A stretch of 20,000 nucleotides of DNA from Promethearchaeota archaeon. GTDB taxonomy: Archaea > Asgardarchaeota > Hermodarchaeia > Hermodarchaeales > Hermodarchaeaceae. Shown here piece after piece: positions 3,605 to 20,000 of the stretch (its first letter is position 1; each line of letters opens with the position of its first letter). The stretch is taken from contig JBHLMI010000027.1 of NCBI GenBank assembly GCA_048938295.1, positions 15,427-35,426 on the forward strand. Direction: 5' to 3'. Both the position numbers and the translations under genes were made by a program. The notes beneath the pieces are model-generated. The model was not told the origin of the DNA, searched no databases, and saw only the letters and a list, made by a program, of their open reading frames with translations.

Positions 3605-3955
3605 GTGGACGATGAACCCCGACGGTCGTCAACCCTCCCTGAAGCCGTACTCACAGCCAGGTCTCAGACCCGGATCTCGGAAGCATCTACAGTACAGGCT
3701 TACGCTGCTCCCTCCCGGGCCTAGCTGGTTTCACCCGATAAAGACGATTCAGCCCTTCCTACGAAAAGCCTACCGCCACCAGCGATCCTCCGAGGCGGAT
3801 CATCACAGCCTTAAACAGTGAGTCGTACAACAGGTCAGAAAGCCTAACATCGGCATTCAGCCCGCCGTATAGAGCGTTTGCGGTGCAGGGGAGCCTTAGC
3901 CAGCCCGTAGCGGTGCTGCCGGGCTTCTAGCCCCCCGCCTAGGCTCACCGTCCAC
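3605..3955 (-). ncRNA. Signal recognition particle 7S RNA
   Basis: Minus strand carries the domain IV signature GCTAGGCCCGGGAGGGAGCAGC (3704-3725). The ends close as an 11-bp helix GTGGACGGTGA/TCATCGTCCAC (3945-3955 with 3605-3615). GC-rich; the antisense ORF 3612..3821 is spurious. Confidence 0.88.
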
Positions 3956-5120: not shown

Positions 5121-5229
5121 TGGTGGGCCGAGAGGGACTCGAACCCTCGACCATCGCGGTGTAAGCGCGATATCATAGCCCTCTAGTCTAAGAGAATATC
5201 CTCCTCTCAGATAGCTAGACTATCGGCCC
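5121..5229 (-). tRNA. tRNA-Val(TAC) with a 32-nt D-loop intron (5181-5212), CCA encoded
   Basis: GGGCCGA/TCGGCCC acceptor; anticodon arm TCGCG-CTTACAC-CGCGA; T-arm GAGGG-TTCGAGT-CCCTC. Removing 32 nt gives a 77-nt tRNA. Confidence 0.93.
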
Positions 5230-16646: not shown

Positions 16647-16748
16647 TTGTCACAGGATTCTGGCTAATGCCGGAACGGAATCAAGGCAAAATAAAAACCT
16701 TTGCTTACAGTCAACCCTCCACTCCTAGCATAAAGAAAGGAAAAGAAG

Positions 16749-16867
16749 TGGCGCAGTTCACGCTTTTCCCGACACCTCGCGGATATCAGTACTCAGAGCG
16801 ACGAAACCGGCTTAACTTCCGGGATCTGACGAGACCGGGTGTGACCCAGCTTCTATGACCGCGCCAC
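16749..16867 (-). rRNA. 5S ribosomal RNA
   Basis: Minus strand: GTGGCGC...ACACCCGGTCTCGTCAGATCCCGGAAGTTAAGCCGGTTTCG...GCGCCAC. 119 nt with helix I GTGGCGC/GCGCCAC. Confidence 0.93.
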
Positions 16868-16923: not shown

Positions 16924-17059
16924 TGGTGGGCCGGCCGAGATTCGAACTCGGGACCACGAGGTCCCAAACCTTGCGAGAAAAACAGAACCCGTTTTCCTTC
17001 TCGCATCATACCGCTCTAGTCCAGCACATATTGTAACTGGATAACTAGACTACCGGCCC
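16924..17059 (-). tRNA. tRNA-Pro(TGG) with two non-canonical BHB introns (17014-17042 and 16970-16999), CCA encoded
   Basis: GGGCCGG/CCGGCCC acceptor; spliced anticodon arm CGAGG-TTTGGGA-CCTCG; T-arm CCGAG-TTCGAAT-CTCGG. 136 nt minus 59 nt of introns = 77 nt. Confidence 0.92.
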
Positions 17060-17189: not shown

Positions 17190-18572
17190 TGCATTGTGGC
17201 TCTATTCGAAAGACAACCGAATTGGACTAAAGCACATCTTATGAAAACAGATTTCATAACGCGAACGGTATGGTCACGTTTACCGAATATATCTAAAAAT
17301 TTAGTCAGAAAATTGCGTCGTATATACACAAGAGCAATTAATGTTTTTTTGATTGACTTAGAAGAAAACAAAGGAAGCATCAAAGAAACTTATCACGAAC
17401 TTCGTAACAATGAATAGTTTTCAAAATTATCCGCGAAAATGCTTAACCAAGCATCACAGGAAGCATTTGTTTGGTTTAATTTAAGACGAAAGGAGAGAGT
17501 TCTAACAGATCAAGAAATACAGAATTGGACAAAATGGGCAAAGAAACAAGGCATTGCGAATTTTGATCCCTCACAAAGTCTTCCAAGATTAATTTCTCAC
17601 TCCGATTATCTTAAAGGACGGCCAGGAAAAAAACACGGTCAATGGCCGCAGACAGCAATTGATGGTGCACGGTTTTACATTGATTCAATTACGAATAATA
17701 TTCTAGTGTCAATCGATAAAGTTGCTAAGAGAACCCAGGTTGTAATTGGTGGAGAACCTGAAAAGCTTCTTCGCCAAGCAATTTCTGGTATACTATCACT
17801 GAAAATCGGTTCTTCACGGCTTCTTGTCAAAGACGGAGTTACACAAATGGCTACTCCTATCCGAGTATCTGTTAATATTCCAGATATTTCAAGCCTTGAA
17901 CAGCCAACGCTGATAGGTGTGGATCTAGGACTAAATACATTAGCTGCTGTGGTTGCGCTAACTTTTGATCGAAGGATCCACCCAGCCAAATCGATCTCTG
18001 GAAAACAACTCAAACACCGTTTAGCATCACTTTGGGCAAAACGAAAAAACGCCGCACGCAAACAAAAATCAGAAAGTATACAAGATATCGATGAAAAGAC
18101 ACAACGAGTAATCCAATATTGGATTCATGTGACAGCAAAAGCAGTAATTAACTATGCAAGTCAGTTCCCACATCCAATAATCGTTCTAGAAGATCTTCGA
18201 AATTATATTCCAACGAAAAAGCGAACTCGATGGGCAAGTTCCTCAATGAGAGACCAGCTTAGTAAATGGGCGCGGGGAAGACTCTTTGAAGCAATTTGTA
18301 TGAAAGCTAGTCTACGTAATTTACCTGTAATCAGAGTCAATGCAGCATATTCTTCTCACGTCTGCCCTAGACAATGTCTTTGTCTTCTACCTCAAGGATA
18401 TTTCGAAGTGTTTCACTGTCCTGCATGTGGCGCAAAAGTTCCACGAGACATTAGTGCAGCTACTGAAATTGCACGTCGTGGTCTTCATCAGGTTACAGAC
18501 AATAAAGTGCAGAACTCTAAGGTTCTTGGCAACGAGAACACATCATCCTTGACCCAATCAGCGGCAGGATGA
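17190..18572 (+). pseudogene. Second TnpB-like nuclease gene, same frame interrupted by a single TAG (17415-17417)
   Basis: LIGVDLGLNTLAAV, IIVLEDLRNY, SSHVCPRQC...CPACGAKVPRDISAATEIARRG. ORFs 17196..17417 and 17439..18572 share a frame, with coding-like residues FSKLSAK between them. Confidence 0.75.
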
Positions 18573-18891: not shown

Positions 18892-19539
18892 TCATGCTTC
18901 AGTTAATCTACTGATGGGGAACCGGATGTAGTAGTAAGGTTTTCCATCTGTGTAATTGACTCTTGGGGATCTCGAAATGATATCGAAATGTTTCTTTAAA
19001 AGGCGAACAAGTTCCTTCAGAAAATTCTTATCGCGCTGTTTTAACTGAACCCGTTTTCTCGTTAAGGAACCATCCGTGTCAATCAAACCAAACATGTAAT
19101 GTTTGAAAAGAAATGGATCTTTTGCAATCAAGGAGGGTACCCTCATATTTTGTTTCTTCCCAGATTGAAAGCCCAATTTATTGAAGAAGAAGTAAGCTGC
19201 TGCACGCTGGATGTTTATGGCATAGCAGTTCTTCTTTCTCTTATCTCGCAGAACACGCGGTTGAAAATCAAAGAGGTCCTTGACTAGCACCGATAATTGT
19301 TTTAGGTAATTTTTCCGACCAACAACCTTTACTCGATAATGATAACCGCCTTTCCTTCGTTGGCACTTATTCAGGTTGCCATCACCCGCAACAACACCAG
19401 CAAAATATGCAACCTTATCACTAATTTCCGGAATTTTTGTCTTTGATTTTTTGGTGCAGATGAAATCCTTCTGAATCCTGTGCCAAACACCTGCTTCATC
19501 TAAAGCCTGTGAAATTGAATGTATTTTGACACCCTTCAT
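18892..19539 (-). CDS. LAGLIDADG homing endonuclease
   Basis: Two motifs, YFAGVVAGDGNLN and YMFGLIDTDGSL. The supplied ORF start (19647) lies inside tRNA-Thr, so the MKGVKIHSI start is more plausible. Confidence 0.88.
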   Translation of the reverse strand: MKGVKIHSISQALDEAGVWHRIQKDFICTKKSKTKIPEISDKVAYFAGVVAGDGNLNKCQRRKGGYHYRVKVVGRKNYLKQLSVLVKDLFDFQPRVLRDKRKKNCYAINIQRAAAYFFFNKLGFQSGKKQNMRVPSLIAKDPFLFKHYMFGLIDTDGSLTRKRVQLKQRDKNFLKELVRLLKKHFDIISRSPRVNYTDGKPYYYIRFPISRLTEA

Positions 19540-19586: not shown

Positions 19587-19661
19587 TGGAGCCTCCGCCG
19601 GGATTTGAACCCGGGACCATTGGCTTACAAGGCCAACGCACCACCACTATGCTACGGAGGC
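19587..19661 (-). tRNA. tRNA-Thr(TGT), CCA encoded, no intron
   Basis: GCCTCCG/CGGAGGC acceptor, TTGGC-CTTGTAA-GCCAA anticodon arm, CCGGG-TTCAAAT-CCCGG T-arm, discriminator T, CCA. Confidence 0.94.
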
Positions 19662-19756: not shown

Positions 19757-19802
19757 CCGAGAGAGCTGCTGGTCGTGGGTTCAATCCCCGCTCGAGGCTC
19801 CA
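19757..19802 (+). tRNA. Orphan tRNA 3' half (T-arm + acceptor 3' strand + CCA), split-tRNA candidate or remnant
   Basis: TGGTC GTGGG-TTCAATC-CCCGC TCGAGGC T CCA. No GCCTCGA-like 5' half found in cis. TATA-like ATATAA at 19731-19736. Confidence 0.5.
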
Positions 19803-19842: not shown

Positions 19843-19953
19843 TGGTGCGGGGGCCGGGCTTCGAACCCGGGAACTCCTACGAGACAGGATCTTAAGTCCT
19901 GCGCCTTTGACCAAGCTTGGCTGTGGGGTCTACGAATGGGTAGATACCCCCGC
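19843..19953 (-). tRNA. tRNA-Leu(TAA) with a 23-nt intron between nt 8 and 9 (19923-19945), CCA encoded
   Basis: GCGGGGG/CCCCCGC acceptor, CAGGA-CTTAAGA-TCCTG anticodon arm, class II variable arm, CCGGG-TTCGAAG-CCCGG. Splicing gives GCGGGGGTAGCCAAGC. Confidence 0.92.
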
Positions 19954-20000
19954 GGCTTAGTCTTCGGGACGCTGACCCTTGGACAGGTCCCCCGCACAGC

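Follow-up and report, generated by a model that had tools for sequence, protein, structure and literature searches.

A tRNA-Leu(UAA) gene on the minus strand of the window (the whole 20,000-nucleotide stretch of Promethearchaeota archaeon DNA analysed here) is interrupted by 23 nucleotides between U8 and A9, and comparison with its orthologs makes it very probable that these constitute a bulge-helix-bulge (BHB) intron at a non-canonical position, which would be cut by the splicing endonuclease EndA before the exons are ligated. Read along the minus strand from 19953 to 19843, the 5′ exon, the intron and the 3′ exon directly follow one another (Table 1). An intron between nucleotides 8 and 9, at 19923-19945, was the central claim of the original prediction, and the coordinates, the product of excision, 17 orthologs and the covariation among them all agree with it.

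Table 1. Coordinates of the tRNA-Leu(UAA) gene, its leader, and other features of the window and of related loci (window coordinates unless a locus is named)
Feature	Position	Strand	Remarks
tRNA-Leu(UAA) gene with intron	19843..19953	-	111 nt; mature tRNA 88 nt including encoded CCA; ARAGORN call after intron removal
5′ exon GCGGGGGU (G1-U8)	19946..19953	-	G1 = 19953, U8 = 19946; invariant in 17/17 orthologs
Exonic strand of BHB central helix (G3-G6)	19951-19948	-	
5′ splice-site bulge G7-U8^A	19945..19947	-	predicted cut between 19946 and 19945; BHB fold
Intron AUCUACCCAUUCGUAGACCCCAC, 23 nt	19923..19945	-	deletion restores tRNA; 14-23 nt in orthologs
Intron hairpin UCUAC-CCAUUC-GUAGA	19944-19929	-	preceded by A
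Intronic CCCC	19928-19925	-	followed by AC
3′ splice-site bulge A-C^A	19922..19924	-	predicted cut between 19923 and 19922; BHB fold
3′ exon AGCCAAGCUUGGUCAAAGGCGCAGGACUUAAGAUCCUGUCUCGUAGGAGUUCCCGGGUUCGAAGCCCGGCCCCCGCACCA	19843..19922	-	A9 = 19922; end of encoded CCA = 19843
D-loop strand GCUUGGUC (nt 15-22)	19909..19916	-	leader-paired in precursor
Anticodon UAA	19894-19892	-	
Leader strand GACUAAGC	19955..19962	-	8 bp with D-loop GCUUGGUC; 97% of cells paired; MFE folds
GC-rich leader hairpin GGGACCUG...CAGCGUCCC with invariant block AAGGGUCAGCG	19966..19991	-	hairpin in 17/17 orthologs
A1, second GCGGGGG, copy of acceptor 5′ strand	19989..19995	-	42 nt upstream of real copy
TATA-like box AATTTTAAG	L001 5470-5476, beyond window		~85 nt upstream of G1; common to all Asgard orthologs
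EndA-family protein, 196 aa	L001 8248-8838, outside window	-	PF02778 + PF01974
Archaeal SRP RNA	3610-3950	-	
5S rRNA	16748-16866	-	
tRNA-Val(UAC)	5121-5229	-	~30-nt D-arm insertion
tRNA-Pro(UGG)	16924-17059	-	directly upstream of 5S rRNA
TnpB / IS605 OrfB-like gene	17439-18572	+	
TnpB / IS605 OrfB-like gene	L001 5553-6845	-	just past window end
Intronless tRNA-Thr(UGU), then 215-aa ORF	19587-19661, then 18892-19539	-	ORF with LAGLIDADG_3 / homing-endonuclease domain
tRNA-Thr(UGU)-like 3′ part	19764-19802	+	no 5′ half nearby
Second tRNA-Leu(UAA) of Hermodarchaeum yapensis	L008 2773-2839	-	also in L021 and L027

The intron and its predicted bulge-helix-bulge fold

In the unspliced DNA no tRNA is called at this position, either by ARAGORN or by Rfam at its gathering threshold, and at a permissive threshold the Rfam tRNA model covers model positions 9-63 only, with 27.3 bits (the gathering score is 29). 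A required tRNA-Leu(UAA) gene therefore escapes the standard tRNA finders in these genomes, and this is explained by the intron. When 19923-19945 are deleted, ARAGORN reports a tRNA-Leu(taa) of 88 nt, which has an acceptor stem of 7 bp and a long variable arm and ends in the encoded CCA; the predicted spliced junction joins GCGGGGGU to AGCCAAGC, and the sequence GCGGGGG-U-A-GCC that excision had been expected to give is thus recovered, with the same junction as in intronless orthologs.

The program itself does not fix the boundaries of the intron. An exhaustive single-deletion scan yielded 112 different deletions that ARAGORN called as a tRNA, and because it is too tolerant in such a scan the boundaries were set instead by the intronless orthologs and the BHB rule, together with the common insertion point in relatives. 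A one-base shift, deleting 19922-19944, gives an identical product, since an A is the first base of the intron and of the 3′ exon alike; the BHB rule, with the cut after the second bulge nucleotide, selects 19923-19945.

The proposed fold has a central helix of 4 bp, set between two 3-nt bulges, in which G3-G6 pair with the intronic CCCC, so that the acceptor GGGG is the exon half of this helix, as the original prediction had it. On one side the intron closes with its own UCUAC/GUAGA hairpin (5 bp here, 2-5 bp across the orthologs), and on the other the outer helix consists of G1C2:G10C11, prolonged by the 8-bp pairing of the leader with the D-loop. Minimum free energy (MFE) folds return this BHB structure, and the 49-nt core has a folding energy of -16.5 kcal/mol, compared with -10.35 +/- 2.47 for shuffles. 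One point counts against the register: the G-run permits a one-base slip of the central helix (to G4-G7), which leaves 2-nt bulges.

The 4-bp helix, the two 3-nt bulges on opposite strands and the flanking helices h and h′ are the features by which BHB motifs are recognised, and the fold at the 8/9 site matches the published definition of the archaeal splice motif as a 4-bp helix with two 3-nt bulges (PMC4090602). The intron length, 23 nt here and 14-23 nt among the orthologs, is likewise inside the known range for archaeal tRNA introns, which is 11-129 nt with medians of 12-25 (PMC4090602). Further non-canonical introns in the window, in the tRNA-Pro(UGG) and tRNA-Val(UAC) genes, also count in favour of the BHB reading. 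EndA cuts after the second bulge nucleotide on each strand, and cutting at these points gives exactly GCGGGGGU + AGCC; the 5′ and 3′ cut positions are thus predicted from the BHB rule together with the restored product.

From the sequence, its fold, its conservation and covariation, and the restoration of a tRNA by excision, all of which are shown here, we infer a pathway with its enzymes, exact cuts and order of events. In the precursor, acceptor nucleotides G3-G6 would pair with the intronic CCCC as the 4-bp central helix of the BHB, with the intron self-closed by its 5-bp hairpin and G1C2 paired with G10C11, and the outer helix would be lengthened by 8 bp between the last leader nucleotides and D-loop nucleotides 15-22. 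EndA would then cleave each 3-nt bulge just past its second nucleotide, after U8 and before A9, and the exons would be joined by a ligase, presumably RtcB, which is the ligase in known archaea. After ligation the real acceptor stem and the D-stem could form, and RNase P could remove the leader. The further claim of the original prediction, that splicing must precede formation of the acceptor stem, seems reasonable and agrees with the folding calculations described below, in which the BHB conformer is favoured with the natural leader.

A near-identical 15-kb contig, L001 (assembly GCA_048941715.1; window position = L001 position + 14561), differs from the window solely by a C to G change in the 3′ bulge and extends beyond the window end. 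A protein of the window is encoded there too, as is an EndA-family protein about 3 kb from the tRNA-Leu(UAA) gene, the only such protein seen within the 15 kb of this contig. Compared with Methanocaldococcus jannaschii EndA it keeps Tyr115 and Lys156 and has a Thr in place of the catalytic His125; it may thus, to judge from these residues, be the structural subunit of a heteromeric enzyme. Its homologs fall into one group of more than 68% identity and one of 44% or less, with none between. Asgard archaea have been described to contain an (alpha-beta)2 EndA with a broad-specificity loop, and tRNAs that escape prediction (PMC5829648).

Orthologs and covariation

Two scans with a degenerate 3′-exon pattern gave 17 loci in species-representative genomes and 13 loci in metagenome contigs. 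All loci from metagenome-assembled genomes (MAGs) labelled as Hermod-, Odin-, Thor- or Promethearchaeota, with the single exception of Thorarchaeota B65_G9, have 14, 16, 22 or 23 nt inserted between U8 and A9. The bearers comprise 13 species-level Asgard genomes and further metagenome contigs, and provide 17 distinct orthologs with the insertion, all from Asgard MAGs; its length varies from 14 to 23 nt and its site never shifts. In the intronless orthologs, from Methanosarcinales, Poseidoniales and one Thorarchaeota MAG, U-AGCCAAG comes directly after the acceptor stem, with the same U8-A9-G10 junction. The Asgard exons are near-identical, and the 3′ exons differ only by one D-loop base and one variable-arm base.

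In an alignment of the 17 sequences the 19 proposed pairs are formed in 96.5% of 318 cells, whereas in a slid control, with the 3′ partners moved by 1-3 columns, only 19-44% of cells are paired; none of 500 shuffles reached the observed covariation score. Three pairs are changed on both sides: A:U to G:C in the leader:D-loop helix (three sequences), and U:A to A:U (one sequence) and C:G to A:U (six sequences) in the intron hairpin. A second changed pair of the leader:D-loop helix goes from U:G to C:G, and this 8-bp helix is supported. The central helix is 100% paired in the 17 sequences and varies only from G:C to G:U; its acceptor side never varies because all of the sampled exons are identical, so the support there is one-sided. 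Variation is free in the hairpin loop and in the bulges, where the third base of the 5′ bulge is an A or a U and the middle base of the 3′ bulge is a C, G, U or A, and the helices are retained. Judged from the alignment, this is the pattern that a functional BHB intron, and not a pseudogene, would be expected to show.

The architecture appears to be particular to this gene within the sequences that were searched. A covariance model of the BHB region, run on 262 kb of Asgard loci and on the distant loci L032-L037, matched only tRNA-Leu(UAA) orthologs, and no other tRNA with such a BHB architecture was found in that set.

The conserved 5′ leader

Beyond the original prediction lie two elements, the outer helix built from the leader and a conserved leader of about 50 nt that contains a second GCGGGGG. 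In the orthologs the TATA-like box is followed by A1, the GC-rich hairpin with AAGGGUCAGCG, and GACUAAGC, in that order. In the Asgard orthologs A1 lies 40-44 nt upstream of the real copy, with 7/7 bases in most of them and GCGGGG in L011 and L025. Where ordinary tRNA genes in these loci show a recognisable TATA-like hexamer, it precedes the mature 5′ end by 31-40 nt; in tRNA-Leu(UAA) it precedes A1 by 30-40 nt, and most orthologs have no such hexamer within 70 nt of the true G1. Because this spacing fits A1 and not G1, the transcript most likely starts just before A1, with a leader of about 50 nt.

Both RNAalifold and the MFE fold of the window precursor (-71.6 kcal/mol) pair UGCGGGGG, at the 5′ end of the leader, with the 3′ acceptor strand CCCCCGCA; the T, variable and anticodon arms are normal and the real 5′ strand is inside the BHB. 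With the natural leader the BHB conformer is predicted at -69.9 to -71.6 kcal/mol, compared with -62.5 kcal/mol when the real acceptor stem is forced, a cost of 9. The balance depends on leader length: without a leader the acceptor conformer is ahead by 7.8-12.3 kcal/mol, 12 nt of leader bring the two about level, and 58 nt put the BHB conformer ahead in all 17 orthologs. Mutation of A1 in the window sequence abolishes the preference, and in the precursor spliced in silico the two acceptor choices are nearly isoenergetic.

One reading takes the leader to be a built-in folding device for an intron that the acceptor stem would otherwise outcompete, with the D-loop helix completing the BHB and A1 serving as a surrogate acceptor strand. 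A1 would hold the 3′ acceptor strand and leave the real acceptor strand free for the intron; splicing would then remove about 7 kcal/mol of bias, the real strand would take over, and RNase P would make the mature 5′ end. We put this forward tentatively, as an idea that is rather unlikely to be correct in full. When the upstream 46 nt of the leader were shuffled, the observed shift in conformer balance was reached by 13, 4, 22, 32 and 147 of 150 shuffles, and because shuffled leaders shift the balance comparably the energetics are not specific evidence for A1; any leader rich in G can pair with the C-rich 3′ strand. Throughout the sample in which covariation between A1 and the acceptor could be sought, the acceptor stem is constant, and EndA homologs of 31-44% identity led to distant lineages in which synteny has broken down and no tRNA-Leu turned up.

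The competing view, to which we give not quite an even chance, is that the intron is real but that the upstream leader, comprising A1 and the hairpin, plays no part in splicing. This stretch might be an element close to the promoter, an independent small RNA, or the relic of a partly duplicated 5′ end of the gene. The comparable effect of shuffled G-rich leaders is in keeping with this, and the local hairpin alone accounts for part of the conservation. As to a relic, global alignments of the leader with the 5′ half of the tRNA gave z = 0.4-2.3 and p = 0.02-0.35 against shuffles, a likeness that is weak but not nil; since it is not significant we rejected the specific proposal that the leader is a degenerate copy of the 5′ half from an old partial duplication. 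An origin as part of the upstream TnpB element was also rejected, as TnpB is present only in L001 and L010. On the other side, UGCGGGGG is kept even where the leader hairpin does not use it, and complementarity to the tRNA body is higher for the leader than for its shuffled versions (0-20 of 300 shuffles do as well), being due in part to the 8-bp helix; at a permissive threshold the leader matches no Rfam family.

A more radical use of A1 is to take it as the real 5′ exon, with everything from A1 (19995-19989) through 19923 forming one long or nested intron. Its sequence is identical to the acceptor strand, it is at a normal distance from the promoter, and it is the copy that pairs with the 3′ acceptor strand in the RNAalifold and MFE predictions. 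The base that follows it is, however, an A or a C and not U8, and on inspection the two GCGGGGG copies, being one and the same G-rich sequence, cannot be joined by a 4-bp helix flanked by two 3-nt bulges. If RNase P trimmed the leader off at the downstream copy, the same mature sequence would result with no need for a second splice, and we consider a 5′ exon at A1 highly improbable.

Remaining alternatives, neighbouring genes and known systems

It would be equally surprising if the gene were a decaying pseudogene, or if the 23 nt were an insertion that is never removed. Such a state would account for the silence of the standard tRNA finders, and Hermodarchaeum yapensis does contain an aberrant second copy with a damaged 5′ acceptor strand (GAAGGGGC). 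Against it, divergence among the 17 distinct orthologs falls on the leader, the hairpin loop and the bulge bases and leaves the exons near-identical, compensatory changes keep the helices, and the insertion varies in length at a fixed site; the CCA and a promoter-like box are present, and these loci hold no other tRNA-Leu(UAA) save the aberrant copy of L008, L021 and L027. That second copy has an intron at the same site and an almost identical 3′ exon, and lacks the A1 leader; it could be a pseudogene or follow another route of maturation. A split or permuted tRNA was rejected since the two exons lie next to each other in collinear order on the minus strand, as was a self-splicing intron, since group I and group II introns have a ribozyme core of hundreds of nucleotides and the insert, of 14-23 nt only, matches no Rfam intron family.

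The window is of archaeal origin, as its SRP RNA and 5S rRNA indicate, and several of its other tRNA genes are unusual. The tRNA-Pro(UGG) gene was missed by ARAGORN and Rfam, and against its intronless ortholog in L010 it shows two insertions, one in the D-loop (29 nt) and one in the anticodon stem (30 nt). The ortholog in L006 carries, in place of these, a different intron, and since the three differ, introns have been gained and lost between relatives. The tRNA-Val(UAC) gene matches Rfam with 32 bits, without its D-arm. Its D-arm insertion and the D-loop intron of tRNA-Pro end alike at the same site (...UAGACUAGAG and ...GGACUAGAG, respectively), which suggests that the two introns are related.

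The tRNA-Thr(UGU)-like sequence consists of the 3′ strand of the anticodon stem, the T-arm, the 3′ acceptor strand and CCA, and is preceded by a CGGAUG...CAUCCG hairpin. It has full-length, intron-containing orthologs in L004, L008, L013, L016 and L021, and could either be what remains after disruption of a gene or belong to a split tRNA as its 3′ half. Adjoining it are the intronless tRNA-Thr(UGU) gene and the LAGLIDADG_3 ORF, which may together represent a mobile insertion with its own tRNA copy. On the minus strand of L007 the tRNA-Thr(UGU) acceptor 5′ strand, GCCUCCG, is present in two copies, which precede the T-arm at 113 by 93 and 47 nt; the extra copy is 46 nt upstream of the other, and by chance one such case would be expected in about 80 tRNAs.

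Of the two TnpB genes, the one on L001 is directly upstream of the tRNA-Leu promoter, and L010 has a 70%-identical TnpB in the same place; in most relatives this position is occupied by a divergent tRNA with a CAU anticodon. The same divergent arrangement of tRNA-Leu(TAA) and a CAT-anticodon tRNA is described for Atabeyarchaeia-1 (PMC11291895). According to the same paper, introns are present in 92-95% of the tRNA genes of Atabeyarchaeia and Freyarchaeia, often at non-canonical positions and in multiple copies, and the portion of its intron table that was examined lists no intron starting 8 nt into a tRNA.

Non-canonical intron sites in archaeal tRNAs include 3/4, 20/21, 22/23, 25/26, 29/30, 45/46, 53/54, 56/57 and 59/60 (PMC4090602), and the 3/4 site has been called an "extreme case" in the review literature. 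The original prediction called introns at the acceptor/D-arm junction rare; site 8/9 is absent from the positions listed in the reviews that we examined, and a literature search centred on such reviews found no 8/9 intron. The intron described here resembles the non-canonical BHB introns of Thermoproteales, Thaumarchaeota, ARMAN and Asgard archaea in its short length, its 4-bp helix with two 3-nt bulges, a central helix shared between exon and intron, and its occurrence in a lineage with an (alpha-beta)2 EndA. It differs from them in its 5′ exon of 8 nt and, because that exon is so short, in an outer helix completed by the 5′ leader.

Compared with the canonical 37/38 intron the topology is identical, with G3-G6 corresponding to nucleotides 32-35, G7-U8 to 36-37 and A9 to 38, and with G10C11:G1C2 in the role of the anticodon stem; the difference is one of place, as an intron at the junction of the acceptor and D-arms blocks the acceptor stem and the D-stem, and not only the anticodon loop. 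There is also a likeness to the split and permuted tRNA precursors of Nanoarchaeum, Caldivirga, Staphylothermus and Thermofilum (PMC3218864), in which a BHB stands beside a longer leader/trailer helix and an unusually long distance separates the promoter from the mature 5′ end; it was this distance that drew attention to the permuted tRNAs of T. pendens (PMC3218864). In the gene described here, by contrast, the exons are collinear and lie in one transcript, with neither trans-splicing nor permutation.

Only in depending on the 5′ leader does the mechanism proposed for the 8/9 intron depart from the standard one, and the intron is a fairly ordinary case of a known kind, with an unusually long conserved leader. 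With it the archaeal tRNA introns on record gain a conserved and structurally well-supported site, from the Asgard lineage that is closest to eukaryotes. With a 5′ exon of just eight nucleotides situated in the acceptor stem, the precursor must choose between the acceptor stem and the splicing motif. If the leader does act as a folding device, the order of events would be enforced, with splicing first and 5′ maturation second, and it would provide a concrete case in which the order of splicing and then RNase P may be written into the sequence of the precursor.
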